Positions 1 to 27,399 of a stretch of DNA of 37,616 bases are shown here, piece after piece. Each line of letters begins with the position of its first letter. Within the stretch, counting starts at the first letter, position 1. The translations under genes and the position numbers were made by a program. Source of the DNA: Nemertoderma westbladi (lineage: Eukaryota; Animalia; Xenacoelomorpha); the NCBI GenBank assembly GCA_032718475.1, contig JAUCBJ010001288.1, forward strand, positions 1 through 37,616, in the 5' to 3' direction. Under the pieces are notes generated by a model that did not search any database, was not told the origin of the DNA, and saw only the letters and a list, made by a program, of their open reading frames with translations.

Positions 1-136
1 CTTATGCAAACATATTGTAAAAGCTTTTGCGGATATAATCAGTCCCCTTGCCCACAAAGTACCGTGTAGGTGTTTTAGCGGACATAAAATTCATTCTTTC
101 TGTATGTGTACTTTGGCGGACATAACAAGACACTAA

Positions 137-1176
137 TGCCGCAATATGCCAAATCCTCTAGCACAGTGTTGCTTTGATGATTCAGATTACGACATCTACC
201 AGCTGGTTTGCTGGCATGGAAACGGCCGTTGGATCTATGGTTCTTTGTTCGGCTTAACAGCCAATCAGGGCGATTTTCATTTTATGTGTGGAGATATCTC
301 TGCAAATTGTGCTAGGCGAGTTTAGTGTTGGTTTTCCTATGCCAAGAACACCGGCTGTGGAATCATTCTGTTTTCAGACTTTAGCCAAACATTAGTAGGC
401 TTTGATTATAGAAACGTATAACTGTTATCAAGTCAATCCATATCATATCATATAAAACAGTGCATATCTCGTACTTTTCACCGCATTATTTTACTGCTAT
501 TTACTGTCGGTTATTAATTGCATCAGTTGATGGAATATTGTTATACTTGGAGAATATCGATAAATAACCCAAAAATCCCAATCTTCTTGATACACTAAAG
601 GTTAGAGAGACCGGTTACATATAGCAATTGCAACTTATATTATCGTGGTTTTGGAGTGAATCTAATGCTATTTCATAGATACTACATGAGTCAATTGCTG
701 TTCTCTTTATGTATGAACAAATTTTAGTGACTGTCGGCAGATCAGTGTGCAGTTGTGCGGTACCGGTAGTGTGCATGAGTGCGACTGATAACTAAGCATC
801 TCCTAAAGAATGCGCCTTATACGTGAATCATAAGCCGTACCGTTGTGTTTAGTATAAGTCATAACTCTGTTTACATATTTAGAGCGCCACGTCCTAAAGG
901 AACTGTTAATATTTCCCGAAAGTGAATAATATTTGTCAGAGATTATATATTAACGATCAATCGAATAATACAGTAGGCTTACACCGCAATAAGGTCAAGG
1001 CATACGAATCCAGCCTCCCGGGTATATCCAGCGGGTGAATGATCGCGCATCGGCTGGCTTCGGCTAATGTTGTGTTTATTTATAACAAATACTTGTCATA
1101 GGCTAAAGTCGATTTATAAACTAAAAGACACTTAAAATTAGTGGGTTAAACTGCTAAAGGTCTAAAAGCGCGAACA
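137..1176 (+). repeat. 5' LTR of BEL/Pao element
   Basis: TGCCGCAATA...GCGCGAACA; about 17 substitutions and no indels versus 17694-18733 by manual comparison (~98.4% identity). Confidence 0.95.
451..457 (+). promoter_or_regulatory. Candidate TATA box in LTR
   Basis: TATAAAA at 451-457, conserved in the 3' LTR; based on motif only. Confidence 0.35.
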
Positions 1177-1189
1177 ATAACAGTTATAC
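1177..1189 (+). promoter_or_regulatory. Non-tRNA primer-binding site candidate (self-priming type)
   Basis: ATAACAGTTATAC immediately follows the LTR-terminal CA and is the exact reverse complement of GTATAACTGTTAT at 416-428 (and 17973-17985). No TGG-type tRNA PBS is present here. Confidence 0.65.
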
Positions 1190-1242
1190 CTTCTTTATTG
1201 CAACGTAAGCAATAAAGCTGAAGTACCGGTCGACCGGTAACC

Positions 1243-1346
1243 TGTAGGCCCAACTGCCCGAACCGGTACTGCTGTAGGCATGTAGGCCCAACTGCCCGAA
1301 CTGGTACTGATGTAGGCCTGTAGGCCCAACTGCCCTAACCGGTACT
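1243..1346 (+). repeat. 38-bp tandem repeat (~2.7 copies) in BEL leader
   Basis: TGTAGGCCCAACTGCCC(G/T)AAC(C/T)GGTACT at 1243, 1281 and 1319. Confidence 0.85.
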
Positions 1347-2177
1347 TCCAGTACAGGTACATCAGTATTATTCGATTTTGATTATTATATACCGGTAGGT
1401 CTTGGTACTTAATCAGGGACTGCAGCCCTGGTTTTTTATTGAGATTTTACTTATTTCTGTTGGTTTTATCTACATGTAAGTTAATATTGAGCAGAAGATA
1501 TGTAAGTCTGCTCAGATTGTTCAGATAATTGTAGGCTGGACTGTTGTCTGACTGTTGTTAGGTCTGGAGAGATTGCGGCGTGTGTAGAGTCTGTCCGATA
1601 AAGTACCAGTTAGGAACGTAGGGGCATCTTGAGTTGTAAGGTAAACCCCCTCCGAAAGAATAAGTCGTCCTACTCGGTTAGAACGCATACTAACTAACCA
1701 TTTCGGAATCTGCATATACTGTAGTTTATTTAGGCTTGATAGTAGTCTGCCAGCGTTTAGTCTGTATTTGTTTGTGTATTCCGTACGGGTAGCGTAATAT
1801 TTATTATTCAGAGTTTATGCGATATTCGCAACATTCATATCCCCAAGTTTATTCCTACAGTAATTGTGCTTGTTACACATACCGTTATAGTTAAATTAAC
1901 CCCGGTACTACACGGGCTGCTTGGCGTAGGTAAAGACTGATGATTTTGTGCCCCGGTCACTCCAGCAGATACCGTGGTTCCTTTAGCTGTACAAGTATTT
2001 TTAACTGCTGGTTATCTGTTTTACAAGTACTTGTACCTAATTTAGGGTTCAGTGTACAGTGCTTTCCGAAAGTAATTAGTGTGTGGGCAGTATATTTGTG
2101 TTGTAAAGTGGTTAATAGGCACATTGGTTCTGGTAGACCGCGGTAATTAACTTCTAGGTAGGAACACTCCGTGAAAC

Positions 2178-2237
2178 ATAACGTAGTACTTATAGCGATA
2201 CGGCTATATAACGTAGTACTTATAGCGATACGGCTAT
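2178..2237 (+). repeat. Perfect 30-bp tandem duplication in BEL leader
   Basis: ATAACGTAGTACTTATAGCGATACGGCTAT x2. Confidence 0.9.
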
Positions 2238-4184
2238 AAATCGTCAGACGGTGGTATTTTTCCTATCTGGACAACGCAGTATATTTACTACTGCTTTATT
2301 ATTTTCAAATACCGTAGTATCCTGTCCGTTGTAATAACCAGAAATTCTAACCCTCTGTTGGGCTGGTTGGTAGTTTCCCTGTCAAATTATCCTAAAAATT
2401 CGTACGTGTAATTTTTGTGTTTATTTAGAGATTGTAATCTCACCCTATATTGTACGTAATTCGTAGATAAGTAACTTAGGCCAGTAGAATTATTTGTTTT
2501 AGTGTGCAACAAGTAGCACCGCACTAAGAGCGTATAGCTTATGTGCAGTGACTCCTCAGAAATAATAACATTTATTTCAAATATTGTAACAAAACCCCTT
2601 AAACGGGTATATATATATATTATAAATCAACTCCAATAGATTTATAAACTAGGTAGGCCTGTCATACAACAATTAGATCTTGACATCAGTTGGACTACTG
2701 CTTAAATAATGGTAATAAAGTAAGATAAAGTAAGATAAAGTAACTAAGTAACCCTTAAGATTCAGAAATTCAATTATTCTAAAATAATAGACATACCGGT
2801 ATCTGCAATAGGCTTGCTATATCTATATATTTGCGCTGAAATTATATACCGGTATTCTGTGACAAACCTAGTCTGCAATAATACTTATATACCGTATACT
2901 ATAAGTGTATACCGGTATTCTAATATATTGTAATTAATTACCGGTACTAGGCTAACAGTCATACTGAATTACTAGACTTGCTTTAACTGTAACTATAGCA
3001 GTAGGCATTCAACTGTATAAACAAATATGTCTGACACAAAGCAAAACCTGTCAGACAGTCTAATTGATACAACCATCTGTGACCCAGATAGGAGTGTGGA
3101 ACGTTTAAGACCGAAGTTCAGCTCACCTCCTACTGTAAGAAAGGTCATCCCTCCGGTAGTAGTATCAGACCCTAGGCTAATCCAACACCGTAGGTCTATC
3201 ATCGGCACTCGGGCCCAGGTCAAGCGGGATCAAGAAGCCGCTGTCAAACCGCAGCAACATCCTAGCCAAGAACTTCGATCCCAGCGACCCGATAGCTCCA
3301 GTAGTTCGGATACTGTAGAGCTGACCCCCGAACGCGGAGTGAAGATGACGGATACGGTTTATTCGGATCCCCTTCACACTCTTCCTGCAGCAGTACTAAC
3401 TACGGTATTGATGGCTGTGGAGGAACACCAAGTCGATTGGGCGAGAAGTAAGCGATCGACCCAAGACAGTTATGCGGGATACGCAAGGGAGGAATTGATG
3501 TCTATTGTCGAGTCGCAATGGAACTTCCCCGGACTCGGACTCCCGTTAGACTTATCTGAAGCTACCTGGGAAGACATACACAGGATGGGAGTGACAAAAG
3601 ATACAATGGATCCAGCTGTTTGGAAGAGGTCGGCAGCAGGATATGTGCAGGGATTCTTCGGCTCTTTAGAGCGATTAGAGGAACAACTGTTTCGACAACC
3701 CCAAGGACCTCAAGAGCAGGAAGAGCTGCTTTATCAAGTACGCGAAAGAACTCTACGCATTAGACTAATCCTATCGGCCTTTGAGGAAGCTTCCAAAAGA
3801 AGACAGGACACGTCGTTGCAAGTTGCTGTCAAGACTTGGTTCCAGCGGGTGGGTCTCAAGGTTCAAGAAACTGCCCAGTGGAAATTTCAGCTGGCTGAGT
3901 GACCAACCTATGAAGAATCAACCGATGCCACCTTTTCTCAAGTGGAAAGCGAAGTGACAGCAGAGAGACAGCGAAAGAGAGACGCTATTGACATCTACCT
4001 ATCAGACTATCAACGTTTCCTAGGTGATGAAGAGTTGAGGAGACGGCTGTCTGGACTTCGCCCTAATAGTGAAGGAGCCAAGTTTGTGTTGGATGCAATC
4101 GATGCGGAAATGTTAGCTGCGAACCAAGCCATATTTGACGAAAGACTCCGCATTGCTAGAGTCCAAGAAGAACAAGTAAAGAAA

Positions 4185-5513
4185 CTACTACTAGGATCGG
4201 CATGCTGCATTGCAGCTGCATTTTTAAGAATGCTGTGCCGGCTTGTCAACAAAATTGCACCGCCACAACTCCCTATCACCCATGACATTTGCTAGATCAT
4301 CCGCATCTTCAAGGCCAGTGTCCTTTAAGATGCGTCTCAAGAAAGTCATGGGCTGTCCACCATGCTTATTCACTCCATGAGGCTGCCAAAGTACAAGATT
4401 ATGCACTGGCTGGTCCTCACGGCGAAAGCAATGTCCTGCAAAGCGGAGGCGATTTTGTTCTAGTGTCAAGCTTGGGGGAACCAATGAGACACCTCCAATG
4501 TTATATAGTGTCTGGTTGGAGATGTGTGCATTGTACTTGACACAATGTACCCGGCGTAGCATTCTTGTGAATGTGCCATCCAGAGATTTGGTGTCCTCAG
4601 CAGTTAGAGCCCAGCATGGACTCCCATAGAGGAGTACTGGAACTACTGCTGCTCTAAATAATCGGACTTTAAGTTTCCGATTAATTCTAGGTGACTTCCA
4701 AATCCTGGAAAGCCTATTCAAGGCTGCCCATGCCTTTCCCTTACGTATTCGAAGGTCCTCACCTGACTTCCGGATCCATGATCCCAGGTAACAGAAGTCG
4801 TCCACATGCTCAAGCATACCATCCTTTGAGCTTATGCTCATCCGATCAGAGACTTGCTGAGGACTTTCAAAGTTAACTGTCAGAATTTTGGTCTTTCTGG
4901 AGTTAATAAAAAGACCAACACTAGAAGCAGCATGTTCTAATGAGCTGAGGAGCCGCTGGGCTCCCTCTAATGATTCTGAGAGTACTCCTAAGTCATCAGC
5001 AAAGTCTAGATCAGTTAGGTACTTGGCAGGATTTCCTCGACTTCTGGAGCCAGTAGGTGGAGTTATCATCACCCCATCATCATTATGATGATCTAAGGAC
5101 ATGCGTAGAACATAGTCAACCACAATAATGAACAAGAATGGTGCAAGTGTGTCTCCTTGGAGGACGCCCCATAACACTTCAAATGGTTCTGTGTCACCGT
5201 CAACAGTAGACACAAATGTTGTCGAACCATCGTATACTGATCTGATTGCTGCAATAATTTCATCAGGAATCCCATATAATGAAAGTATGCTGAACATACG
5301 TGAGCGAGAGACTGAATCAAAGGCCTTGAAGAAGTCAACAAAGATAACAGCCAGATGCCTGTCTTTCTTTTTTGATAACTCTTCAATTATCCTTCTAAGT
5401 GCCAAAATGGGCTCCATGGTCCCACGACCTTTACGGAACCCATTCTGATTTCCACGTAGCAGTCTCTCAATGGGATCCCTGATGCGATTTAATAGAATTC
5501 TATTTTTCTATTT
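4185..5513 (-). mobile_element. 5'-truncated RTE-like non-LTR retrotransposon inserted antisense in gag
   Basis: Flanked by AAGAAA direct repeats (4179-4184, 5514-5519); short (TAG)3 tail on the minus strand at 4185-4193; removing 1335 bp restores the gag frame (EEQVKK/KRIEDRKKVAVAAAE). Confidence 0.9.
4224..5504 (-). CDS. LINE reverse transcriptase, C-terminal part (RTE-like), no endonuclease
   Basis: NRILLNRI..QNGFRKGRGT, VDFFKAFDSV, GVLQGDTLAPFLF, LDFADD, FCYLGS, RLRFAGH, DRELWR; frame open to the stop at 4224. Confidence 0.9.
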   Translation of the reverse strand, partial: NRILLNRIRDPIERLLRGNQNGFRKGRGTMEPILALRRIIEELSKKKDRHLAVIFVDFFKAFDSVSRSRMFSILSLYGIPDEIIAAIRSVYDGSTTFVSTVDGDTEPFEVLWGVLQGDTLAPFLFIIVVDYVLRMSLDHHNDDGVMITPPTGSRSRGNPAKYLTDLDFADDLGVLSESLEGAQRLLSSLEHAASSVGLFINSRKTKILTVNFESPQQVSDRMSISSKDGMLEHVDDFCYLGSWIRKSGEDLRIRKGKAWAALNRLSRIWKSPRINRKLKVRLFRAAVVPVLLYGSPCWALTAEDTKSLDGTFTRMLRRVHCVKYNAHISNQTLYNIGGVSLVPPSLTLEQNRLRFAGHCFRREDQPVHNLVLWQPHGVNKHGGQPMTFLRRILKDTGLEDADDLANVMGDRELWRCNFVDKPAQHS

Positions 5514-7680
5514 AAGAAAAAACGAATAGAAGACAGAAAGAAAGTGGCAGTGGCAGCAGCAGAAGTAAAAGCGGCAGTGGCCGAGGCAGAACGAAAAGCA
5601 TCTGAAGAGACCACCCAATTAGAGTTGGAAAATATTCAAGAGAATCAAGACTACATAAATAAACAGTTAGCAGCTAGTCAAATGCAGATGATGAGTCGAT
5701 CTACTCCCAAACGACAGGGATTTACATCTTCTGATGAAGGCGATACCACCAACCCTGAAGGCGGAGGACATAGATCTCGTCTAAGTAGGCGTAGAAGAAC
5801 GTCTCACCGTCAGAAATTGCCTGATTTGCCTCCAGCTGTTAGAAGACAACTAGCTAGCACAGACTTAGGTAGTACAGAACCCACAGACCAAATTATTAGA
5901 GTAGAAAGACTCCCTACTATAGTAGATGAGCCTGAAATAATTAGGCCTGTTCTCGAAACCACCCCTTCGGTGAGAGAGACCCCTGTACTCCTCGAACCTA
6001 CCACCAAATTCCCTTTGCACAGTACTAAACTGCCTGTACCCGGTAGAACAGCCCAAGAGAATATCCCGGTCCTGGATGCCGAGAGAGAAATCCAAGATTT
6101 GTCTCCCGTCGTCCCGCATCTGCCCGCTACTACGTTGGCGACTCCCGCTTCGGCGGTCGAGTGGGTAGATGAGGGACGGCGGGAGATGTGTCTCTTGCTC
6201 GGACAGCTGAGGGAACAACGAGAATGTTCCTCCCGGCAGGTCCGAGATTCAGAAGGGACTGTCCACCAGCTCAAGGGAACAGTAAGGGAAAGTAGGTTAG
6301 AGCTACAAGAAGTGCAGCAAAGTATTGCGCTAGAACTCGACAAATTAGTAAATATACAAAAGGGTATACCAACTCCCCCTGTAACCATGTGTCAACCTGT
6401 TAGGCCTGAAGTATTTCATGCGCAAGGTGTGGAGCCTACACGCATCTATACTGCTAGTGAAGTAGAAACTCCTATAGTAAACCCTATTAAGGGTAATTAT
6501 AAACCTGTTGATAATGATATTCCCTATAGACCTGATAATAATCCGAGAAATTTATATACCGATAATTCGATATTAAATAACACGATGGCCCAAGAAAGCT
6601 TTACGCGTCAGATGGCTAGAACAGAAGCCCGCCAAGCGGTCAAAGTGGGAGAGATCGTCAAATTCAATGGAGATGAGATGAAATGGTTATCTTTTAATGA
6701 ATATTATAAAGATAACATACAGAACTCTGTACTATCTAACGGAGAGAAACTTAGATTCCTCATCGAATGTTTGGAAGGACCTCCCAAGTTAATGGCGTTA
6801 AAGTTTATTGGACATCCAGATGGATTAAGACAAGTTTGGGATACATTAAACATCAGGTATGGTAATAGGAATAACATAGCTAAGTATTTGTATGCAAAAT
6901 TGGTAGCCCCCCGAAAGTTCATTAGTAGCGGGATTATAGAGTTTTCCGATGAGATTCAGGAGGTCTGTAGACAATTGGATTGGCTAGGTAAGTCTCATGA
7001 ATATCAGAGTTCCATGGTTATTGGAGCCATAGCCTCTACTTTACCAAAGGGTGGAGTAGGTACACGCTGGGACAAGAAAGTGTTGTATATGATGGAGCAG
7101 CAACAACGAGACCCTACCATGGCTGATCTCATGTCCTTCTTAGATGGAGAAGTAAAATTACAACTCATAAAGCAGTCCAGAGAGAAAACACCGGAAAATA
7201 AGTTAAGTGAGAAACCCGTTTCTAGGAGAAAAGTAACCCCAGTGTGTTATACTGACGATGGCGAAAGTCAAGCTTCTCAAGAAGGTAAAAGACACTGGCT
7301 GATCTTACTATGTTAACAAAACGGCAAAAGACGTAAGTAAATACAAGTCTCGAACCAATGATAGGAGAGAACAGGTTGCCAAGACTCCTCCTCAGTCTTG
7401 TAACAGAATTCACGGAAGAAAGCCCGAAGAAGGAACGAGAGTGCATAACGTTATCCAAGGTAAAGTGAGTAACATCAAACCAAAATGTGCGCTGTGCGAC
7501 GGGCCCCACCGTTTGAGTGCGTGTGCTGAATTTCTAAAGAAATCCCTGGTAGACAGACGTGAAGTCATGTGGGATAAGCGGTTATGCTATAATTGCCTCA
7601 GACAAGGACACCAACGGCGAACCTGTTACTCCGACGTAAGGTGTGCAAAGTGCGGTGCGAAACATCACATCTTGTTACAC

Positions 7681-10600
7681 AATGAATTCGAACGAAACAG
7701 CCCGAGTCAGGTAAGTGAGCCCAAACTACATGTCCAATTCAGTGATGTAAATGACACTGATCAAGGTTCTGAGATGGAAGGATTCTATACGGACGAATTC
7801 TCCGATGCCAACGAATCCTGTTACCTAATAAATACCGCAGTGTATCGAGCACTTACGTATGAAAAGGAAACAGATAATGAGTTCCCCCCAACTACTTTTG
7901 ACAGACAACCATCTTGGAAAGCACCAACCTCCAACGTAGGAATCCGAGAGTTTCCTGTAGTGCAGGTAAGAGTCCATGGTCCTGACAAAAGTTACATAGT
8001 GAACGCCCTCCTTGATTCCGGCAGCACAGGAACATTTATTGACCAAGAACTAGCCGAAGACATCTTTGCTGGACAACCCAAATTCCAAACTAAGTTAAAC
8101 ATGTCAGGAATTATGCAGGTTTGGAAATCGACCATAATTGCAGATTATTATGTAGGTGCGTTGTCCACCCCCCAGGATAAATTAGGAGAACAAAGTATAA
8201 GGTCAGTAAAAATGGTGGCAATAAAGAACTTCGCTACTACCCAAGTAGAACCTTATAACTGGGACGAGGACGAGTGCATCCAGCAGCTTAAGATACCTCG
8301 ATTCCACACAGATTATCCTGGAGTGCAAATCCTCATCGGCCAAAACGCGCATGAGGCGCTAGAGACATTGGAGAAACGGCCTGCTCAACCGCAGCCACTA
8401 CAAACCTATGCGGTAAGAACTAGAGTAGGTTGGTACTTTACTGGTCCTTCCCGTATAACTCTCAAAGAAAGATTACCCCAAGAACAGGTATACCAAGTGG
8501 GGGAGTGGGAAGTGGAGAGCAGTGAGGTGGACGACCCAACTGAGGGAACGCCATACTCCTCAGATAACGACGATATCCACCAACTCTTCGACGAAGAGAA
8601 TGCAATCGACCTACTTACGGAAAACGAAACTTGGCAAAACCAAGTGAACCTATGTCAACTGATTCGCCCATCGGGGCCAATTAACTACAATGACGAACTC
8701 AATGACGAGATAGAGCGCTACAACGCTAGGACTCGGGACGAACTCGCCGTACGATTCTTTACTCAAGAGGTGGTAGAGCCCAATTCATACGATAAGGCCC
8801 TATCGGTAGAAGAAGAAAGAGCCAAGCAGATCCAGGAGACAACTACACGTTTTCTAAAAGATCAAGGTAGATATGAAATCGGCCTACCATTTCGAAAACG
8901 AGAACCTAGATTTATAAACAACCGACCCTTGGCGGAGAAAAGAATCGCTCAATTACATCGCCGCCTTACGGCAAATGCTTCAGCTAAAGAAATGTATCAA
9001 ACTCAGTTGAAGAAATTTATTAACAAAGGATATGCGGAGCGAGTACCGGAAGAAACACCCATAACTGAGAGAACGTACTATCTAACGCATCATTACGTTC
9101 CCAAACCCGGTAAACCCCATGAAGTCCGAGTCGTATTCGAAGGCTCCGCCCTATACATGGGCCAATCCCTCAATTCTTAGTTGTTACCAGGACCCAACTT
9201 ACTTCAATCCTTGTTGGGAATACTCTTAAGACTAAGACAATATTCCATCGCTTTCGCCTCTGATATAGAAGGAATGTTCTTACAAGTCAAGGCGCTGGAT
9301 AGGGATAGAGACAGCCTAAGATTTCTGTGGTGGCCTGAAGGAGATCTCAACCAGAAACCGGTGGAGTATGATCATCACATATGATCATCTGATGACCATC
9401 CAGGCTTTTGGGATCATCTCAAGCCCTTCGAATGCCTGCTCAGTGGTGCAGACCACTGCTGATGACAACCGGGACGCCTTCTCCAAAGAGGTTATTGACA
9501 ACATTAAACGGGATATATACATGGACGACAATATAAAGTCCCTCCCATCGGTGGAAGAAGCCATTGATGTCGCCAAAGGAACGGTAGAATGCTTAAAAAG
9601 AGGTGGATTTAGATTGACTAAATTCACCAGCAACTCCCGTGAGTTTCTGGAATCGATTCCGGTAGAAGACCGAGGAGCGAAAGACTTAGACCTAATCAAG
9701 GACGATCTTCCAGAAACCAAGACGCTTGGCTTGAAGTGGGACACGGAGAGAGATATCCTGTTTTTTCAGCTAAAACAGCGAGATAATCCAGTTTGGACCA
9801 AACGGATTTGTTTAAGTATCCTGAGCACTTATTTTGATCCATTGGGATTTATTAGCCCAGTTATATTGATTGCTCGGAGTTTAGTACAACAAATGTGGCT
9901 CGAAAACCACTCATGGGACGATCCACTTAAGGGAGAACTATTAAAGAAGTGGATGAAATGGGAAGATTCTCTACCAGCCATTGAGAACTTTATAATTTCC
10001 CGTTCATATTTTGGTCATGTTCTCCCTACGTATTCCTATCAACTCCATGTGTTTGGAGACGCCAGCGATATGGGAATAGGTATAGTAGCATACGTGAGAG
10101 TTGAAACTCCGGATGGAATCAAAGTCGCCTTGGTTACCTCTATGGCCTTGATTAACAACAAGTTGAAGGTTCCTTGAGCGGAGTTAAAAGCGGCTCTATA
10201 CACTACAGCCATCGGCCGGAATGTAACTGAACAGATCGATTACCCACTGGAGAAAACTGTTTACTGGACCGATGCTTTACTCGTGTTGGAGTATATAACC
10301 AATGAAGTCTGTCAGTTCAGCGTCTTTGTTACCAACAGAGTAGCCATTATTCTTAGTCGCACAAAGATAGATCAATGGAGACATTGCCCTGGTACGATTA
10401 ATCCAGCCGACATCGCCTCCAGGGGAGCAACTCCACAGGAACTGATAGATACTCCAGATTGGTTGGGTGGACCCGACTTCCTGAGCAAGGAAGAGGATGA
10501 ATGGCCTCCTCACCTTACTACGGCAGAGATTAGACAAGCCAAGGGAGCGGAGAAAGTCAAACCTAAAACCCGAGCGAGTAAATCGAAGTTATTTAAACCT

Positions 10601-11948
10601 GTGATAGATCTGTCAGTATTACACAATTCCGGAGACGAGGTTTTGGATCCACAATCCCTCGCCACAAATAAGTCTGTTGTGGAAATCAGAGAGAGAGAAT
10701 GGAAATCTGGAATGCCAGACGTCTCGCAAGGACTCTCACCCCTGCTGCAGAGAGCGATACATCACTATAGTTCCTGGAATCGGCTCTGTAAGGCCGTCAC
10801 ATATTTAAAGCGATGTTTTCATCATCAATACTACAGGACAAAGACCACTAGTGATACCGCTCCACTGACATCTGCACAAGTTCATGTTGTTAAAGATCTT
10901 CCCAAATATAGTAAGCTTCTATGAACTACCCTTTACTAATACCGGTGTGGATTTATTTGGCCCTATTGAAGTATATCATGCTAGGACTTTAGTCAAGAGA
11001 TGGTGTGTCATCTTTGTCTGCATGACTTGTAGAGCTATCCATCTCGATATGGTGAACAATCTATCTACCAACAGCTTCGTATTAAGTTTACGCCGACAGA
11101 TCGCTCGCTTCGGAACTAGTAACACGATGAGATCTGATAAGGGAACGAACTTCATTGGTGCCAACAACGAAATTCAGGCTTACGTAAAGGACTGGAACCA
11201 AAGACAGGTGGACGATCAGCTAAGGATAACAGCGTCTAGCTGGACCTTCAACGCCGCCGACGCCCCTTGGTGGGGAGGAAGTTGGGAGAGATTAATAAGA
11301 AGTGTAAAGACCGCATTTCACTTTATAGTGCCGTGCCGCGCGTATCTCACCAACGAACTTTTGCGGACGCTAATGGAGGAAATCGCCGCCTATCTCAACG
11401 AGAGACCGCTTATGCCAGTCTCATCTAGTCCCGATTCCCTGGAAGTGCTAACACCCGCGCACTTCCTACTGAAGAAACCTGTAGCCATGCTCCCACGATC
11501 GGAGATCACCGACGGAGACGAATACTGCCGGCAAACTTGGCAACTTATGCAGTTGCTATCCCGTCGTTTCGCTGATCATTTCGAAAAACATTATCTGCCC
11601 ACGCTACAACTTCGAACTAAGTGGTTTGCGCAGCAAGAAAACGTCAGCGCCGGAGACATGGTGCTTATTGTGGATTCAGACCTTCCACGTAAGCGGTGGC
11701 AGACAGGCCGTATCATCGAGACTCACATCTCGGAGGATGGTTTGGTGCGCTAGGTAGAACTCGTCGTCATGTGGCGTAACTTTAAGAAACCGGGCATAAT
11801 CTTCGAGACGCAACAGCTCAACCGCCCAGTTAGTCGTTTATGTTTACTGGAAAGAGACCGAGAACTCTCCGGAAACTATGGAAGGCAAGATACTCTTCCC
11901 ACGACCACCTCCCTAATTCCTCAAACATCTAGGGGCTCCCCAACATAA
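7681..11948 (+). pseudogene. pol: BEL/Pao pol (protease, RT, RNase H, integrase), disrupted
   Basis: ALLDSGSTGTFI; RVVFEGSA; SDIEGMFLQV; IYMDD; LHVFGDAS; WRHCPGTINPADIASRG; GVDLFGP/SDKGTNF/GGSWER; WQTGRI...RPVSRLCLLE. In-frame stops at 9178, 10175 and 11751; frameshifts near 9375 and 10910. Confidence 0.93.
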
Positions 11949-12512
11949 CCACATCTGGAGCGGGTGTGTGACTATATTATTTTATATACTTTTATTTCTT
12001 TTATATCTCTATGTATGTATTATTATGTAAATTTCTTATAATTGTTTTATTTAATTTTATTTAGTAGAATGTTATTTTAGAGATTATTTAGTAGATTAGT
12101 GCAATATATATTAGTGTTTATTACTTAATTACTTATATATTATATATTTAGTGCGACGGCGAGAAATAATTCTTTTTCTCTTTCCTTACTGTCCGTATTA
12201 TATTATAAATGCAAGACTACAGTAAGATGAAACGTCCGTACTTATTAAAGTCCAATAAAGCTCCTACTATATTCAAGTATTATTGGTAGGCAGAGTATTA
12301 GGAATGCAAAGTTCAGATCCTCGTGTCTCGGCTAAACCAAGCTCTGGGTAGACCTTGGAAACGACTTGCCTTTTCACACTGACATTGCTTCGTGCGATAT
12401 TGCTCTTCTACCTTAGATTAAATAATATATATAGTAGTGTGATGTCCCTCTAACAGTAGCGTAAAACGCAAATAAACCTGTTAAACCTGTTAAACCTTTT
12501 GACCATCTTTAA

Positions 12513-12769
12513 TTCTAGTCGATTAAGATATCGTGGCACCCACCGATATACTTGAAAGACAAATTCTAGAATCAGTGGTTAACGTCCCCAGACAAGTTCT
12601 GGAACAAATCGGTGCCCATCTTAAATATTAATTTAATATTTATTAAAATCTGTAAAATTCAGATCCTTTAAAATTTCTAGTCAATTAAGATATCGCAGCA
12701 CTTACCAATACTCTTAAAAGACAAATTTTCTAGATTTAAGGATCCTAGGTCCCCAGACATGCTCTGGAA
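12513..12769 (+). repeat. Imperfect ~95-bp direct repeat in the pol-ORF3 spacer
   Basis: TTCTAGTC(G/A)ATTAAGATATCG...AAAGACAAATT..CTAGA...GTCCCCAGACA.G.TCTGGAA at 12513-12604 and 12675-12769. Confidence 0.75.
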
Positions 12770-13590
12770 TAAAATTCTGTCAATTTTACCATCAAATAAT
12801 AAAATTTACGGGAATAAATTTAAATTCATATCTTTAACGAATTTAATAAATTGTCATTTTATGCAATTTATAATATTCCCAAAATTCCATTAATTAATAG
12901 ATCACGGGAGCGGAGATTCACCCTATTGAGTGTATTAGAGTGCGAGAATCTCCAATATATAGTCAATAGCCGATAAAATTCATAAAATCATGTATAAAGA
13001 GGATATTGACAATCAAAGAATTACTATTAAATAGCATCCCAGATCTGTATGCATGAGAATTACCCTAATTCTACCGCTAGCTTTCCATAATGTTACCATA
13101 GCAACACCCACGCTAGAATTAGAAGCAAGTTAAAAAGAACAATAGAAAGCTTGCCCCATTGCATAGCATAGAGAATACATAGCACACTGTTAGTATCCAA
13201 GGATACATAATAATAACGTGGCATTCTGGAAGGCACTGACTAACGGACAAATGGCCTGTATGTGTACAATTGGTGACAGTTGTGTGGAATTTGTGCGTTT
13301 ATAGGTGAATGTTACTACTAAAGTGTGTTTACAGTAGCAAGTCGCAATTGTGAAAGTAGCCCTAACTCTACCGAAAGAACCTGAAGTGGATCCAAGCCTT
13401 TGGGACGGACAGTGGAGTGACTTGTGCCGGTTATCATTGTCGTGGTGTAGCTACACGTTGGCGAAAACACCGCGACGACGGTACATCGGCGCTGAGAATC
13501 CCACTGTCCGGGGGCAGAGAGGGGTAGGCAGCGACGCCCGCTCGCCTAAATATAAACTCATTATAATATTAATAAACTCATATAACAGAT

Positions 13591-15282
13591 ATGACGGAGT
13601 TGATAGAATATGATCTTGGTATCAGGGAGCGATATACTCTACCTTTACAAGCGTTTGTGGATAGCTTGATACGCGGTGAAGCCGATCCAACTACTACGGA
13701 GGACGATGGTCGTTATATCGAACCGCCTATGTCCCAGGAGCAACTTACGCGTGAATTGGACTATAGAAAATTCACCGCTCGCTATACGCATCATAATGGT
13801 ACGTATATGGACTTCTTAACTACCGGCCATCCTATCAATTTACACGATACGGACGATGTAGACACCGAAAGGGAAATGGTTTTATTTAAATATCATACCC
13901 AGCGGAGTCGTAACGATAAACCGAGAATAGAACACGAGAATTCTATTCATAACCGACTTGAAAGAGAAAACGTTGAAGAACCCGATAAGCGCATCGACTT
14001 CAACGATTACCTGGAATTTTTGAGAGAAACCTATCTCAATATTGCCAGTCAACAGAACCTAGAAACTCGATATCCTCAAGGTATACATCATGACCCTATG
14101 GTAGAACTCAAACGGCTCTATTTCACTATGATGTATCTTACTGCCGATCGTCCACTACCTGTTGTCCCGGATAGCTTTGAACAGATGGAGGAATATTGCA
14201 AAACTGGAGAACGATCACCCGTGTTTCCTCTACAGGATGTGCGTCTTTGGTATTATTGTGACAAATGCCCTAGACCCAACCAACAAACGGAAAGACATAA
14301 ACATCCGCGGAGACGTTGCGCTAAACACAGTTTTAAGCGTTATACTTACGGGAGTTTCGAGCGAAATCTGTTTGATGTATCACCTACGATTGCTCGTCTC
14401 AAACGATCACTAAATAAACCCATGATCAGGGTTCCGGAATACTCGGTCAGGCCTCCTCATTCCCCAGTGAGACCTCAAACTCTTGACCCTAACAGTATCA
14501 CGGATCCTCCCGAACTATATTCACTGTTCAAAGATTTAGTGTTACCCGAACAATTAATCGGTGGCACCCTGGTATTGGGTTCGTTAGATATTCGCCCATC
14601 CTACTTAGCCGGATTGGGACGCGGGCATCTAATATCGCCATTTAATCCTTACAATCGTCCAGGATTAACCCCGATGCAATCCGCCACGGAAGTTGAGGAG
14701 AGCGTTATAAGAAACACTTTAGACGCTATTCGGCAGAAGATCGGAAAGGGAACGCAAGATTGTTTAGAGAAACGTAAATTACAGCTACAAGTCCAATCGG
14801 TGAAGGAGTTAGCCTTGCCACATTTCGATCAAGAAATCCAAAACCTCAAGGAGGACATCGAGCTTGGACGCACGTATTCTCTACAAGAGTTTCTAGATGA
14901 ACGCCTACAGCAACAAGCGGAGGAAAACCAACTCGAGGAGAAACACACGGAAATGGACGAGAGAGAAGAAGCCGCTTTAGCCCAACCCGAAGCTCAAATC
15001 CTTATGACGGATCTCTACTCTAAAACCGTCCGTCATCCCTCTATGGTTCCCCATTTCGGAGACAAACTCTTCGCGACAATACAACCCCAACCGGTTGATA
15101 TAAGCATAAGATCACAAAATCTTATTGCCGACGCTCCTATGTTACAGCGTCTGCCAATCGAGGCCGCTCGTGTTGATGGTATACTCCGAACCTCCGGACA
15201 ATCGAGCAGATCTTGTCCGTCGTATGGTACACGATATCAACATACGCGCTACACCTTTACAGAACTCGTTTTATGGGATTAA
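13591..15282 (+). CDS. ORF3 N-terminal part, unknown function (CxxC motif, acidic coiled coil)
   Basis: 563-aa open frame inside the LTR-bounded unit. The last ~35 codons probably read out of frame, because the overlapping frame 15125-15607 continues it. No signal peptide or TM segment evident. Confidence 0.7.
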   Translation: MTELIEYDLGIRERYTLPLQAFVDSLIRGEADPTTTEDDGRYIEPPMSQEQLTRELDYRKFTARYTHHNGTYMDFLTTGHPINLHDTDDVDTEREMVLFKYHTQRSRNDKPRIEHENSIHNRLERENVEEPDKRIDFNDYLEFLRETYLNIASQQNLETRYPQGIHHDPMVELKRLYFTMMYLTADRPLPVVPDSFEQMEEYCKTGERSPVFPLQDVRLWYYCDKCPRPNQQTERHKHPRRRCAKHSFKRYTYGSFERNLFDVSPTIARLKRSLNKPMIRVPEYSVRPPHSPVRPQTLDPNSITDPPELYSLFKDLVLPEQLIGGTLVLGSLDIRPSYLAGLGRGHLISPFNPYNRPGLTPMQSATEVEESVIRNTLDAIRQKIGKGTQDCLEKRKLQLQVQSVKELALPHFDQEIQNLKEDIELGRTYSLQEFLDERLQQQAEENQLEEKHTEMDEREEAALAQPEAQILMTDLYSKTVRHPSMVPHFGDKLFATIQPQPVDISIRSQNLIADAPMLQRLPIEAARVDGILRTSGQSSRSCPSYGTRYQHTRYTFTELVLWD

Positions 15283-15607
15283 AGACCACCCTTATTACGT
15301 TAATCTGACTCAATATTATATGGTAAAACCTGAAGACCCGACGCATAATTTAAAGTTTCTACCGCTGATAAATCCTCTCGACATGGTCGAACTCAAACAA
15401 TTGCAGAAACATCTGGATCAGTTAGTAAAAGTAAACTCATTCAGAAAACCATACAACATATCTAGAATCAAGAAGGATGCAACACCTCCGTATAATCTCG
15501 ATGGATTTATTAAAACTCGATTAGTCCATTGGAATCTCGACGTATTATTCGAGGAAGAGAGAATACAAAGATATGAAATGTGGAGACGTGTACCACTCAG
15601 TACCTGA
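15125..15607 (+). CDS. ORF3 middle segment (frameshifted bridge)
   Basis: Protein-like frame-2 ORF overlapping both neighbouring frame-1 ORFs. Confidence 0.55.
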   Translation: MPTLLCYSVCQSRPLVLMVYSEPPDNRADLVRRMVHDINIRATPLQNSFYGIKDHPYYVNLTQYYMVKPEDPTHNLKFLPLINPLDMVELKQLQKHLDQLVKVNSFRKPYNISRIKKDATPPYNLDGFIKTRLVHWNLDVLFEEERIQRYEMWRRVPLST

Positions 15608-17679
15608 AGTATAGTGATCTCCCTGACGCTAGCCAATGCGCCACCTTGTGGCATCCAGTAGGGATGACCCTAGAGAACGCCACCAAAGAGTGGAATGAAA
15701 CTCTTAATGTCATTGAGATGTACGGAGTTGTCACCTACGATAACGAAGGTAGCGTTCCAGTCGGAGAATTAGGAACTACGCGCATGATACATATACGAGG
15801 ATTAGCTGGTTCTACCCACGTGTTTACTAGAGCGTGTTCCGATGTGATTGATTATTCTTTTGAGACTCTCACCGAAACACAAAAGAATCTCCGACATGGA
15901 CAATTCGAACTCGCACAGCATTATGTCATGGACACCGAGCGCAAACCTGCAATGGGTATCGATGGATCGATGTTACCCCAGCCCGTGCTCGAGATGTTGT
16001 TCAACGAAAGAATCTTTAAAATCGGCTCAGCTGTTTATGGAGATCTCCAAAACGACTTTCGGAACATGGAGAACATTCCATATCCTTTCGTGGATACTCA
16101 GCTGATTGCTCCCTGGGCAGAAGGCCGAGGTTTCTTCCGCACCATGTATGCTAATACATCCAGCAACATCGCCAAAGTACAACGAACTTCCATCGGACAT
16201 CTTGCCTTTCAGGAATACGGATGGAATTTCAAAGTCGGAAATCCTATCAACTATCAACAAGTATATGGAGACCATTATTCTCGATTATACTTTGACGGAC
16301 CATTGACCGCACCTGGCGCCGTGTATAGCTTCATGAGTGTTCCACTCCGTCCCTCCTTAGCTATATACACGATCTTTGAAAACACCGCACTTGCCGGTTG
16401 GCTAGCCGATGTGTGCAGTCGTACTATACGTGCCCATCCATTAATACTTGGAACCAAACTCGCTAAGCTAGATGAACATAATAAATTCATCCGCTTCGAA
16501 TGTTTCAGGCGTTTTTTAACCCCGTTCCGTAACGTGGATAGCCAATTCAAGGACCGCGCTTTGACCAAGCTCAGCCTAAGAAACTCAGCTGCGGAGAAGG
16601 TAGATAGCGCTCGATTTGCAATTTTTAAAGATATTTGTATACAGAACTTACACTCCTCTGTTATACAAAGACCTCGAATTCCCACAGGTTATTCTGTCGT
16701 GGAAATTCAGACAGTGGGTTCAATTGAGGAGACAGCCACACCCACCTCGGCCATGCACTTGGAAGACGAACCAATATGCTTAAAATCCGAGGAGATTCAG
16801 CCTACCGCGCCCAGGAGCAGCGACAACGATTACATCTTAGAATGGTATCAAGGTCCACAGTGTCTCACCGCATACGATTATCGCCATGCCAACTATGTTT
16901 CTCGACAACGTTGTCGGTTATGCGCATTGAGAGACCATATTACGCCCATGGACACAAACGTACCCTGCTCCTATTTCCACAAACAACCGGCGATGGAAAT
17001 CTATTGTGCATATTGCCAACTCAACAATTTGCACATTTTTGCAGTCTGCCCCCAATTTATGACTCAATGCCACCATTGTCAACTAAAAGGACATGCCAGT
17101 TTTGATTGCCCTTTTAATCACGATTTAGAAAGCGTAGATGAAATGATTACACTACGTTACATTCGAGCTTGGGAAGCGAACGCTGATTTATATTGCGATT
17201 CACGCCATCGCTATTACCCTGGACGCGCCTACGAAGGAGTTTATGCGTTCCATCCCTATCTATTCGCGTCTGTCGAACAGAAATCACACATACCGAGTTA
17301 CGAGCTAATAAAGCGCGTCGGAGAATGTATTTCAACCAAATTTGTACGCAAATTTCTCCGGAGCGTTAATCCTAACGATATTCATTCCTACAACTTAATC
17401 AATTTTATCCGTCAAGATCCAGAATATGGCGATTTATTTATCAACTCGCATCCAGAGTTACAGGAAGTATATCGACGGCCTTACGAATACCGAGCCCGAG
17501 AGCGCGAGTTGGAAAGAACCATTAAACCAAGGAAGTTTCTCACTGCCTATGGTCCGCCCACGGCTCTCGTTCAGACCACTCGTAAAGGACCCGTAAGAGC
17601 TGCTGTCCTGAAAAGCGCTCTAAAGGCCGTTAGACCTCTCTCCCCCGAAGTTGATGTCGACCGCAATAATAAAATATAA
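15580..17679 (+). CDS. ORF3 C-terminal part: DEDDy-type 3'-5' exonuclease domain plus CCHC zinc-knuckle cluster
   Basis: ExoI VVTYDNEG (D 15739, E 15745); ExoII LPQPVLEMLFNERIFKIGSAVYGDL (D 16042); FVDTQ; SIGHLA; ExoIII PLRPSLAIYTIFE (Y 16366). Knuckles CAYCQLNNLHIFAVC and CHHCQLKGHASFDC. The stop lies 14 nt before the 3' LTR. Confidence 0.8.
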   Translation: METCTTQYLKYSDLPDASQCATLWHPVGMTLENATKEWNETLNVIEMYGVVTYDNEGSVPVGELGTTRMIHIRGLAGSTHVFTRACSDVIDYSFETLTETQKNLRHGQFELAQHYVMDTERKPAMGIDGSMLPQPVLEMLFNERIFKIGSAVYGDLQNDFRNMENIPYPFVDTQLIAPWAEGRGFFRTMYANTSSNIAKVQRTSIGHLAFQEYGWNFKVGNPINYQQVYGDHYSRLYFDGPLTAPGAVYSFMSVPLRPSLAIYTIFENTALAGWLADVCSRTIRAHPLILGTKLAKLDEHNKFIRFECFRRFLTPFRNVDSQFKDRALTKLSLRNSAAEKVDSARFAIFKDICIQNLHSSVIQRPRIPTGYSVVEIQTVGSIEETATPTSAMHLEDEPICLKSEEIQPTAPRSSDNDYILEWYQGPQCLTAYDYRHANYVSRQRCRLCALRDHITPMDTNVPCSYFHKQPAMEIYCAYCQLNNLHIFAVCPQFMTQCHHCQLKGHASFDCPFNHDLESVDEMITLRYIRAWEANADLYCDSRHRYYPGRAYEGVYAFHPYLFASVEQKSHIPSYELIKRVGECISTKFVRKFLRSVNPNDIHSYNLINFIRQDPEYGDLFINSHPELQEVYRRPYEYRARERELERTIKPRKFLTAYGPPTALVQTTRKGPVRAAVLKSALKAVRPLSPEVDVDRNNKI

Positions 17680-17693
17680 TAATAATAATAAAA

Positions 17694-18733
17694 TGCCGCA
17701 ATACGCCAAATCCTCTAGCACAGTGTAGCTTTGATGATTCAGATTACGACATCTACCAGCTGGTTTGCTGGCATGGAAACGGCCGTTGGATCTATGGTTC
17801 TTTGTTTGGCTTAACAGCCAATCAGGGCGATTTTCATTTTATGTGTGGAGATATCTCTGCAAATTGTGCTAGGCGAGTTTAGTGTTGGTTTTCCTATGCC
17901 AAGAACACCGGCTGTGGAATCATTCTGTTTTCAGACTTTAGCCGAACATTAGTAGGCTTTGATTATAGAAACGTATAACTGTTATCAAGTCAATCCATAT
18001 CATACCATATAAAACAGTGCATATCTCAGACTTTTCACCGCATTATTTTACTGCTATTTACTGTCGGTTATTAATTGTATCAGTTGATGGAATATTGTTA
18101 TACTTGGAGAATATCGATAAATAACCCAAAAATCCCAATCTTCTTGATACGCTAAAGGTTAGAGAGACCGGTTACATATAGCAATTGCGACTTATATTAT
18201 CGTGGTTTTGGAGTGAATCTAATGCTATTTCATAGATACTACATGAGTCAATTGCTGTTCTCTTTATGTATGAACAAAATTCAGTGACTGTCGACAGATC
18301 AGTGTGCAGTTGTGCGGTACCGGTAGTGTGCATGAGTGCGACTGATAACTAAGCATCTCCTAAAGAATGCACCTTATACGTGAATCATAAGCCGTACCAT
18401 TGTGTTTAGTATAAGTCATAACTCTGTTTACATATTTAGAGCGCCACGTCCTAAAGGAACTGTTAATATTTCCCGAAAGTGAATAATATTTGTCAGAGAT
18501 TATATATTAACGATCAATCGAATAATACAGTAGGCTTACACCGCAATAAGGTCAAGGCATACGAATCCAGCCTCCCGGGTATATCCAGCGGGTGAATGAT
18601 CGCGCATCGGCTGGCTTCGGCTAATGTTGTGTTTATTTATAACAAATTCTTGTCATAGGCTAAAGTCGATTTATAAACTAAAAGACACTTAAAATTAGCG
18701 GGTTAAACTGCTAAAGGTCTAAAAGCGCGAACA
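17694..18733 (+). repeat. 3' LTR of BEL/Pao element
   Basis: Near-identical copy of 137-1176, TG...CA. Confidence 0.95.
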
Positions 18734-19193
18734 CATATGGAGCAAGCTGCGATCGTTTCTATCGCAAACAATGAATACACAACTCACACTGCCTTTGGAT
18801 GTAACAATGCTGTGTTTTATTGCATATTTGGACTCAATCAACCTTAGTAGGGCTACAATTTTAAATTATATGTCGGCTATAGCCATGACTTATCGATTAC
18901 TTAATATGACAGAATCTACCAAATCTTTTCGTATCCCTAGACTTCCTATCACAAAACAAATTTTATCACGAATGTTGCATGTGTGCAGTTCTGTTTATCC
19001 TGATCCTTATACTAACTCCATACTTAGATCTGTATTTATATTAGCTTTTTATGGTTTTTTACGAGTAGGTGAATTCGCACCAAAAAAGGGTACTGACGAA
19101 GTGGTTATAAATAGAACAGATCTACAATACGACGGACCTAGACTTATTATTACTATTTGCGCAAAAAACAGGGATAGTACGTCTGTATCATAA
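18734..19193 (+). pseudogene. Tyrosine recombinase fragment (DIRS/Ngaro/Crypton-type), truncated
   Basis: YGASCDRFYR.., CFIAYL...ATILNYMSAI, RLPITKQIL, LAFYGFLRVGEF (first catalytic Arg box). The downstream HxxR/H/Y motifs are missing. Confidence 0.8.
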
Positions 19194-19668
19194 AAGTTAA
19201 ATTTGTATAAGTTACTTTAAAATGTATAATGCTCTATATTATGTAGACTTACTATAATTATGTTCTCATATAATATTAATATTGATGTTTTAATATTTAC
19301 AAATGTATAAAAATTATAATAAAAATATGTATGGTTGAAAAATACGTTGTTGCGTTTTCCTTCCTCTGTGGTCATTTTTGCCCGTAATTGTTTGATCTGT
19401 CGATAAACTGATTGACTGGCTACCTAGCAGCGGCCGTACAACGAATCGTTAAGGATGAGGAGACGATCGTGAACGGATCGGACATAGCGACGGATATGCG
19501 GGCTATGGGAGTACGAGCAGTGAATCTTCTGGGATCTAGGACACTTCCCCCCCCGGACACTTCCCCCCCCCCCCCCCCGACCAAGTAGGACACTTCCCCT
19601 CCGGACACTTGCCCCCCGGACACTTCCCCCCCAGTTAAAGTGTTAAAGTTAATCTGGGTGCATCAAAG

Positions 19669-19956
19669 TGAAAGGATTGAGGTTGTAACTTGAGGACCTA
19701 ACTAATTATGGGGTACCGGTAACAATGGTTTGTACTGTACCTAGTAATTAATACCTTTGGGGGGATCTAAGTGCGCGTTGACATATAAGTATCTGATGTC
19801 TGCATAAGTACCGGTAGGGGATGAATAATATAATACTGATGGTGATGACTGAAACCTGTTGTTACCCTGTGTTATCGTGTTCGAAGTGCTGAACTGCTGA
19901 ACCGTCTGGAGCCTTCAATTAGACCTGTGAACTCTAAGGCAGGTGGGAGCCTGTCA
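19669..19956 (+). repeat. Gypsy 5' LTR
   Basis: TGAAAGGATTGAGG...GGGAGCCTGTCA; 3 substitutions and 1 indel versus the 3' LTR. Confidence 0.92.
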
Positions 19957-19970
19957 GTCAGCGGTGGGAT
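19957..19970 (+). promoter_or_regulatory. Gypsy PBS remnant, tRNA-Leu-like
   Basis: GTCAGCGGTGGGAT resembles the TGGTG(G/T)CAGCGGTGGGAT Leu-type PBS but lacks the leading TGG. Confidence 0.55.
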
Positions 19971-20266
19971 ACGGTCCACCCCGCTACCCTAATTAACTGA
20001 GTGCTTTATTTGTACATTTGTGTATCATCAGTGAGTTCAGACATTCGTACCCTGGTATATATAATGCAATAATAAGTATAATGGCTGAATGGGAATTACC
20101 CAATTATGAACTGTTGGAAGGAACCGGTAGGCCTACTGTTCTACCAGTACCGATGTAGGAAGTGGATAGACTGTAACTGTTGACTGTACTGCGGCTGGTA
20201 TTCGGTACCGGACCGGAAGTTAAAGTGTGGCATTTAAGTGTAAATACAGAAATATAGGCCTAAAGT

Positions 20267-24271: not shown

Positions 24272-24607
24272 TTATCGAGGGTCAACCAGGTGATGGTGAA
24301 ACACCAAACAATGATGAGATCCCTGCGCAGTGCATAGATGTGGGACCCGTTGTACCCACTACCACAAACATTGTCGATGAGGGCGAGGAGTCCAGTGACG
24401 AAGACCCACTTTCATTCATTGCGGGTACCTCACGTTATGGTCGACTGCGTCAAAAACGCAAACTATATAGCCCCTGAGATTACTACAGTAGTTTTAAAAA
24501 CTGAACGGAACATTACTCTTACTGACTTTTTATTATGGTATGTTTATTTTCAAATGGAACTCTTATCATATTTAGCAACTTAGGGTTTAAAAATATTGGA
24601 TATTTTT

Positions 24608-24617
24608 GGGGGGAGAA
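24608..24617 (+). promoter_or_regulatory. Gypsy polypurine tract
   Basis: GGGGGGAGAA just before the 3' LTR. Confidence 0.85.
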
Positions 24618-24618
24618 T

Positions 24619-24905
24619 TGAAAGGATTGAGGTGGTAACTTGAGGACCTAACTAATTATGGGGTACCGGTAACAATGGTTTGTACTGTACCTAGTAATTA
24701 ATACCTTTGGGGGGATCTAAGTGCGCGTTGACATATAAGTATCTGATGTCTGCATAAGTACCGGTAGGGGATGAATAATATAATACTGATGGTGATGACT
24801 GAAACCTGTTGTTACCCTGTGTTATCGTGTTCGACGTGCTGAACTGCTGAACCGTCTGGAGTCTTCAATTAGACCTGTGAACTCTAAGGCAGGTGGGAGC
24901 CGTCA
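24619..24905 (+). repeat. Gypsy 3' LTR
   Basis: Copy of 19669-19956 ending GGGAGCCGTCA. Confidence 0.92.
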
Positions 24906-27039: not shown

Positions 27040-27399
27040 GTAAGATTGTTATTTAATGTATAATCAATGTGTTTGTAGAGCCACTGAAGTTCTAACTACA
27101 TTTACAATAAACTTTTGCTGTTAAAGTTTTACCAAAACCTGCCAATTGCGTTCTACTGTAAGTATGATTGGTGCCATTCAAGATTCTGTTTGACTGTTTG
27201 CAAAATTTACTGCTGTAACCTCTCTGCGTCTCAACTCCTCTCTGACATCCGTATCCTCTGCCAAGTTACACTGTTAAAACTACAGAGTTCATAAAATTAC
27301 ACATTAATAATAATAATAATATAAAAGTTACTTTTTCCAAACAAATTAGTTTCCCCTGCCGAAGGCATTCCATTTATTCCACCCAAGATAAATATGTAT

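Follow-up and report, generated by a model that had tools for sequence, protein, structure and literature searches.

A predicted self-derived primer-binding site in a BEL/Pao retrotransposon of Nemertoderma westbladi

Organization of the element

The DNA analyzed here, referred to as the window, is a 37,616-nt stretch of contig JAUCBJ010001288.1 from the Nemertoderma westbladi assembly GCA_032718475.1. Up to position 18733 it holds an LTR retrotransposon with the following main features.

1 to 136, forward strand: sequence of the family that precedes the shared block and probably belongs to an LTR extending past the start of the window; missing before the second copy
137 to 1176, forward strand: first copy of the shared block, probably the right-hand part of the 5' LTR; ends GCGCGAACA; a contig of sequencing run X3 ends at the same base
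3027 to 11860, forward strand: BEL/Pao gag-pol, interrupted by stop codons, shifts of frame and an inserted LINE, with DUF1759, protease, RT (YMDD), Peptidase_A17, integrase and DUF5641
4176 to 5513 (ends approximate), reverse strand: 5'-truncated LINE fragment inserted in gag, with RVT_1 and DUF6451
13591 to 15607, forward strand: extra ORF a, in two frames; nothing in Pfam or Atlas
15577 to 17679, forward strand: extra ORF b, likely a DEDDy-type 3'-5' exonuclease domain plus zinc knuckles, the last acidic motif unaligned
17694 to 18733, forward strand: second copy of the shared block, probably the right-hand part of the 3' LTR, preceded by a (TAA)n run

The coding content bears out the assignment to BEL/Pao made in an earlier note on this DNA. 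Three families characteristic of this group (DUF1759, Peptidase_A17 and DUF5641) score above their cut-offs, the domain order is PR-RT-RH-IN, and 68 of the 69 matches in a related-protein search carry PF05380. The named RT relatives, at ~40% identity, come from cnidarians, a barnacle, an abalone and a lancelet, and the viral collection contained neither a relative of the element nor a match to the junction pattern. The pol domains are thus of BEL/Pao type and not of the Ty3/gypsy chromovirus type that is a trait of the Tf1/sushi group. A leader of 1.85 kb lies between the first repeat and gag-pol, and the element spans at least 17 kb without the LINE. An Rfam scan of 1-19000 returned one chance-level match, and no tRNA gene was found in the window.

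Extra ORF b is assigned PF01612 plus a zinc knuckle by Atlas (0.90). It has four weak matches among representative proteins and none in a word-indexed search at 385-1225 aa. In an alignment of four sequences D55 and D160 are invariant, while the third acidic motif does not align. The protein encoded in the window gives no Pfam exonuclease match, and its AlphaFold model has a pLDDT of 33. The layout of an exonuclease followed by zinc knuckles is common to three unnamed proteins.

Self-comparison identifies one long direct repeat, 135-1176 against 17692-18733, with 98.4% identity; the shared block proper (137-1176 and 17694-18733) has 17 differences in 1042 aligned bases. The earlier note had treated this block as the 5' LTR. 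Its right end at 1176 is probably a true LTR end, but the block appears to be only part of the LTR. Position 137 has been rejected as the LTR start because there is no target-site duplication at 137/18733 (ACTAA vs CATAT), no polypurine tract (PPT) ahead of 17694, and the family sequence runs on upstream. This upstream sequence, 1-136, contains three GCGGA(C/T)ATAA repeats spaced by ~40 nt. It is multi-copy, with a contig depth as high as that of 137-428, and it is joined to 137 onward in several divergent contigs, with contigs spanning 97-218.

The right end of the repeat is ACA in two copies, and the LTR of L067, a related BEL family, begins with 9 bases to which the end at 1176 is reverse complementary, a point in favour of a true end. 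A contig of run X3 extends to the base equivalent to 1176, where its ACA end is a variant one, and continues into 807/808 of a different copy (a joint of 1164 to 807, seen in one contig). Ending at the same base, this contig also favours 1176 as a true end. Against this end stand duplications that span 1176/1177 in single contigs (1557 to 1021 and 1939 to 947). Contig comparisons of either stretch show, among the entries listed, no place where many molecules end.

A 13-nt self-complementary match at the repeat end

The following features are found in and directly behind the first repeat.

416 to 428, forward strand: candidate self-primer GTATAACTGTTAT, whose 3'-most base would pair with the first base past the LTR
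451 to 457, forward strand: TATAAAA, a TATA box (with TCA 29 nt downstream, 478-480) or a poly(A)-signal variant
959 to 971, forward strand: another 13-nt inverted match, pairing with 1365-1377; either background or an alternative helix
1115 to 1120, forward strand: TATAAA, likely poly(A) signal, 62 nt before the LTR end
1177 to 1189, forward strand: predicted non-tRNA primer-binding site, exact complement of 416-428
1193 to 1217, forward strand: predicted 9-bp hairpin directly behind the 1177-1189 site

The sequence 1177-1189 (ATAACAGTTATAC) lies directly 3' of the shared block, at offset 0, and is the exact reverse complement of 416-428 over all 13 nt. Direct comparison confirmed the statement of the earlier note that this match is perfect and that the LTR motif, whose second copy is at 17973-17985, is free of differences between the two repeats. 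It was also correct that no tRNA site starting with TGG follows the repeat: there is no TGG after 1176, so the tRNA-complementary site that is a feature of BEL/Pao elements is missing at the repeat end. Base 428 lies opposite 1177. A 3' end at this base points into the LTR, which is the orientation required of a minus-strand primer.

In dinucleotide shuffles of the repeat, scored at offsets 0-3, a match of 13 nt was reached in none of 5000 cases and one of 12 nt in two. The empirical background between the repeat and the leader (~1850 starts, 1177-3030) holds one other 13-nt inverted match, that of 959-971 with 1365-1377 (-13.4 kcal/mol), and two 13-nt direct matches. Because these are more than the shuffles suggest, the chance of the match is better put at ~0.1% when only the exact position counts and at ~0.5% when six offsets are allowed.

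The duplex of 416-428 with 1177-1189 has a predicted energy of -14.1 kcal/mol, compared with -6.4 kcal/mol for the 1177-1189 site paired with itself. Its predicted pair probability is 0.82-1.0 in two folds, and the helix is present in both the minimum-energy and the centroid fold of 380-1300; the region 380-1300 overall is not predicted to fold better than shuffles (z -1.1). The hairpin at 1193-1217 has pair probabilities of 0.77-1.0. An extension of the helix by 410-413/1191-1194 was rejected (pair probability 0.03-0.04).

The earlier note had cautioned that the motif is nearly palindromic. This is true of its core, ATAAC-W-GTTAT, but the self-pairing is weak by the energies given above. In 37.6 kb the exact core is confined to the three expected places, and none of 102 related loci contains it, so a dispersed protein-binding site is not supported. 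With one mismatch the core is matched three times in the window, against ~1.4 expected. One of these matches (10 of 11 positions, at 13582-13592) overlaps the start codon of extra ORF a and is possibly due to chance. Past the site, 1225-1346 contains the palindrome TACCGGT-CG-ACCGGTA and short tandem repeats, and ACCGGT occurs many times in the leader.

The location of the transcript start bears on how such a site could be used. Neither a TATA sequence 20-40 nt upstream of 416 nor a YCA initiator-like triplet ahead of 416 was found. The TATAAAA at 451 together with the TCA at 478-480 suggests a transcript start near 480, in which case the primer motif would be present only in the 3' LTR copy of the RNA. 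Such a start would not exclude the priming route known from Tf1, since the related Tf2 usually begins transcription 3' of its self-primer and only occasionally from an upstream start (PMC5341516). At the place of the TATAAA at 1115-1120, the relatives have AATAAA, 44-125 nt before the LTR end. Run X4, guessed to be RNA, was left out with regard to expression.

Self-complementary sites in related BEL families

To collect relatives, 16 RT pieces were combined into a profile. From the 510 metagenome loci it identified, the best 80 were taken and joined with 22 loci from genome bins to a set of 102, of which 36 had a flanking repeat pair and 14 ran past the LTR end in both copies. The 12 used are those with an LTR end fixed by two copies; L026 was dropped because it has no clear CA end, and L095, with a decayed end, was moved to a second tier. 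The genome-bin loci (L081-L102) are BEL/Pao elements in 22 contigs of bacterial or archaeal bins and are most likely host-animal contamination.

Three of the 12 relatives have TGG within 5 nt of the LTR end, and in these the match to the element's own LTR is 4-5 nt long. The other nine have no tRNA site, so a tRNA-complementary site is not universal among BEL/Pao elements. All nine have a match of 10-13 nt to their own LTR, 0-4 nt from its end. When every site was compared with every LTR, foreign pairs reached 10 nt or more in 5 of 154 cases, two of which are pairings between the related families L021 and L043, and 12 nt or more in none.

The match is contiguous in two of the nine TGG-less relatives. 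In the other seven (L003, L021, L043, L052, L070, L082 and L087) it is found only across the junction of an intron with the form GT(A/G)AG...YAG, an arrangement also seen in L017, L036, L048, L050, L057 and L075. In these intron-split relatives the site pairs with 10-15 nt that are formed only by removal of a 66-451 nt LTR intron. The intron might survive copying if an unspliced template were used with a spliced primer RNA. In the element of the window, an intron-split primer was rejected because 1-1176 contains no GT(A/G)AG donor and the match is contiguous.

Joint changes of site and primer are seen across distant BEL families and also in the sister families L082 and L087, where the end of the exon and the site differ jointly (CAC/GTG vs TAA/TTA). 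The covariation between primer and site that the earlier note had looked to is therefore seen among these families, but they serve as an analogy and not as within-family covariation, because the element of the window groups outside them or near the TGG families L067 and L068. In the integrase tree it is a long branch outside the self-pairing group (group support 73-76) and outside L067/L068; in the RT tree it stands beside L067/L068, weakly or without support. The element may represent an independent origin of self-pairing, or it may be the one chance case. Its primer lies 748 nt from the LTR end, compared with 44-203 nt in the relatives.

The second tier consists of ten loci in which only the LTR start is fixed. 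A match is present in seven of the ten, with the LTR end chosen from the match and the result therefore not independent; L095, L012 and L053 lack one. In blind scans a canonical spliced match was found in 5 of 10 loci, compared with 1 of 30 decoys; rows from region position 1290 upward were treated as edge artefacts. Decoy scans gave contiguous 10-mers in 10 of 30 cases, so L023 taken by itself is not significant. The match of L057 was found by eye, at offset 5.

In 10 of 15 relatives, with ~1 expected, the last base of a YCA triplet lies 0-2 nt ahead of the primer, a post hoc count which hints that these primers start the transcript. In the intron-split relatives YCA is often found directly ahead of the primer, which would imply a first exon shorter than 10 nt. 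None of 16 has a TATA sequence 20-40 nt upstream of the primer.

Other copies of the element

Contigs from three DNA runs, all of the same organism, cover every one of the 30 bins of both compared stretches at very high summed depth, which points to a large family that includes the extra ORFs. The depth is summed over contigs, and its ratios are therefore unusable for deciding which part is LTR. The extra ORFs (13591-17679) are multi-copy together with the element in four runs. This copy is a member of a minor subfamily, since the deepest contigs of run X2 diverge from it by 12-14% over 11500-18050, even though the difference between its two repeats is just 1.6%.

The earlier note had allowed for a normal TGG site that other copies retain and this copy has lost. 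No insertion or joint at 1176/1177 appears among the best-supported entries (the best 40 of 480 substitutions, 12 of 104 indels and 15 of 17 joints) or in the best 12 of 17 of a further joint table. Loss of a TGG site in this copy alone is accordingly unlikely. One X1 contig that diverges right after the site keeps its first 11 bases. Some contigs keep 388-430 and differ on one side (joints at 296-388 and 430-490), a weak sign of constraint. The depth dips around 137-430 and 1178-1284, where most copies differ from this one, and most copies may carry other letters at primer and site.

Alternative boundaries of the LTR

A second set of LTR-like features follows the integrase. It was overlooked in the element layout of the earlier note and provides a real rival to it.

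11957 to 11964, forward strand: PPT-like tract GGAGCGGG, with TGT directly behind it at 11965; no other tract of this kind lies within 11750-17700
11965 to 12283, forward strand: LTR-like AT-rich piece with AATAAA at 12254; the start of a giant LTR or, on the rival reading, a true short LTR
12284 to 12295, forward strand: TGG-type site TGGTAGGCAGAG, a relic or a working tRNA site; one base longer than the site of L067

The PPT-like tract lies ~140 nt after the integrase end motif, compared with 77-479 nt in the relatives (13 of 17 relatives with the motif found). The TGT at 11965, behind this only PPT, is the best candidate for the left end of the LTR. The LTR would then extend from 11965 to 18733 (TGT...ACA, ~6.8 kb) with both extra ORFs in U3, the window would start inside the 5' LTR, and the TGG site at 12284 would be a relic.

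The same features can be read as a tandem dimer, which we consider improbable. The true LTR would be the 320-bp piece 11965-12283, primed by tRNA at 12284, the 1040-bp repeats would be a duplicated spacer, and the 13-bp stem an internal RNA structure. The units would run LTR, leader, extra ORFs, spacer, gag-pol, PPT and LTR, with the second unit truncated at 18733. The order and spacing of the PPT-like tract, TGT, AATAAA and TGG site are indeed correct, and a dimer accounts for the missing target-site duplication, the lack of a PPT at 17694 and the multi-copy state of 1-136. The weakly supported placement beside the tRNA-type L067/L068 in the RT tree agrees with it, as do the single-contig duplications across 1176/1177. 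It requires, however, that a break fell by chance exactly where an ACA end meets the first base of the 13-nt stem, and that a second contig broke at the same base. The short piece also has no ACA end and no second copy within 1-27000. Its TGG-type site carries one base more than that of L067, which we take to be of initiator-Met type, and no majority deletion of this base is found among the best 12 of 60 indel entries. A deletion ahead of 17694 is required by the giant LTR and by the dimer alike.

Proposed priming mechanism

Primer binding at 1177-1189 by RNA cut from the element's own LTR, in place of a host tRNA, is the probable role of the site. This is the best explanation of the match, its position, the BEL/Pao domains and the recurrence of this layout, in other letters, among the relatives. 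LTR RNA of 416-428 would anneal to 1177-1189, a cut or trimming after base 428 would leave a 3' OH paired to the first base past the LTR, and reverse transcriptase would extend this primer into U5-R.

Two routes to the primer can be considered within self-priming. Given self-priming, a Tf1-type route, with the transcript starting at ~414-416 and an RNase H cut, has slightly better than an even chance. An internal primer, taken from the 3' LTR copy or from a second RNA, falls a little short of an even chance. On this internal route, a 3' exonuclease such as ORF b could trim the RNA back to the duplex. Such a trimming role is speculation that echoes a suggestion made for rotifer elements (PMC5408684).

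The designation "Tf1-like self-priming" in the earlier note fits in that the site abuts the LTR and complements the element's own LTR; self-pairing is likewise found in all nine TGG-less relatives and in none of the three TGG relatives. It fits less well in the strict sense of the first bases of the transcript acting as primer, given the missing TATA and YCA upstream of 416, the TATA/initiator-like pair downstream at 451/480, and the 748 nt to the LTR end. The strict Tf1 route, including a transcript 5' end at the primer and an RNase H cut, is a candidate route for this element.

The pairing could also be real and serve a purpose other than priming, a reading to which we give little weight. 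Ty1 CYC, an element RNA pairing that circularises the RNA, is a model for it. Here 1176 would be the LTR end, the RNA would be circularised or dimerised through the stem or the near-palindrome would bind a protein, and a host RNA or tRNA fragment would prime. The near-palindromic core speaks for this, as does a start at ~480, which would put the motif in U3 near the RNA 3' end. The weakness of the self-duplex and the restriction of the exact core to its three expected places, which speaks against a dispersed binding site, argue against this reading. Moreover, the letters in the relatives are unrelated and non-palindromic, pair only after splicing, and always lie 0-5 nt from the LTR end, and no tRNA gene or RNA family was found in the element. 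A chance match in AT-rich low-complexity sequence, leaving the priming mode of a decayed copy unreadable, is very improbable despite the three other 13-nt repeat/leader matches and a genome scan that covers many elements, given the offset of exactly 0, the low empirical chance and the nine of nine TGG-less relatives.

With self-priming as the preferred reading, the coexistence of both kinds of site may be a fossil of an independent switch from tRNA priming to self-priming, although we regard this as unlikely. An ancestral BEL element with a 320-bp LTR and a TGG site would have gained a self-pairing site 6.5 kb further on. The LTR end would have moved there, the old LTR, leader and exonuclease gene becoming a ~6-kb U3, with the old tRNA site decaying and the captured exonuclease trimming RNA to the 13-bp duplex.

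Comparison with known systems

According to the ICTV, Belpaoviridae are primed by host tRNA through an 18-nt site for tRNA-Arg or tRNA-Gly, have LTRs of 0.2-1.2 kb and genomes of 4.2-10 kb, and replicate in a manner that is poorly understood (PMC8742986). The element resembles the family (genus Semotivirus) in its Gag-PR-RT-RH-IN order, Pfam marks and PPT after the integrase (PMC8742986). It differs in having no tRNA site at the repeat end, a length of at least 17 kb without the LINE, and two extra ORFs.

In the Tf1 route, the 5' start of the transcript acts as primer after an RNase H cut (PMC7175516, PMC4600332). Unlike Tf1/Tf2 (Schizosaccharomyces pombe) and Tj1 (S. japonicus), which belong to the Tf1/sushi group of Ty3/gypsy, the element has a BEL/Pao and not a chromovirus pol, and its match is 13 nt long and 748 nt from the LTR end. 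Most of the BEL relatives differ further from the Tf1/sushi group in requiring splicing to make the primer. The available text of PMC6317226 describes self-priming for Tf1/sushi and predicts it for Tcn1 (gypsy) and for TAR/Houba/Osr-1 (copia, plants). These cases are likewise predictions from sequence outside fission yeast, but they concern other superfamilies, and no BEL/Pao case appears in that text.

The extra ORF and its exonuclease have a parallel in Juno/Vesta of bdelloid rotifers, which carry an extra ORF with a DEDDy exonuclease proposed to process the 3' ends of element RNA. These elements are not BEL/Pao, and the accessible part of PMC5408684 makes no connection to priming. The BEL/Pao survey PMC3118150 does not contain the words primer, PBS or tRNA, and the available portions of PMC554778, PMC3601003 and PMC3286476 hold nothing on BEL/Pao self-priming. 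Neither self-priming nor a splice-formed primer in BEL/Pao was found in the open-access literature searched, and element tables in supplements or Repbase entries could mention such sites.

In C. elegans, BEL elements of the Cer7 type are reported to carry a tRNA-like primer of their own along with extra ORFs. The present element differs, since no tRNA gene lies in the window and its primer would be plain LTR sequence.

If the signatures hold, self-priming would extend to a third LTR superfamily, and BEL/Pao elements of marine invertebrates may commonly use it. In most families tested, splicing would be needed to form the primer, and replication would thereby depend on the host spliceosome. LTR-element callers that rely on a tRNA site would miss or mis-bound such elements, and self-priming elements would presumably escape control by tRNA fragments aimed at the site. 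Carrying a tRNA-type and a self-pairing site together, this copy offers a testable history and would be the more interesting case if its self-pairing arose independently.

Flanking sequences

The right end of the element is flanked at 18734-19193 by a decayed ORF that on visual inspection looks like a tyrosine recombinase of the DIRS type and has no Pfam match. A decayed Ty3/gypsy element follows at 19666-24905, with 291-bp repeats (98% identical) around gag-pol. The rest of the window contains a tandem array of ~65 copies of 66-bp units at 27348-31900 and a fibrinogen C-terminal domain exon at 33707-34336, likely part of a host gene.
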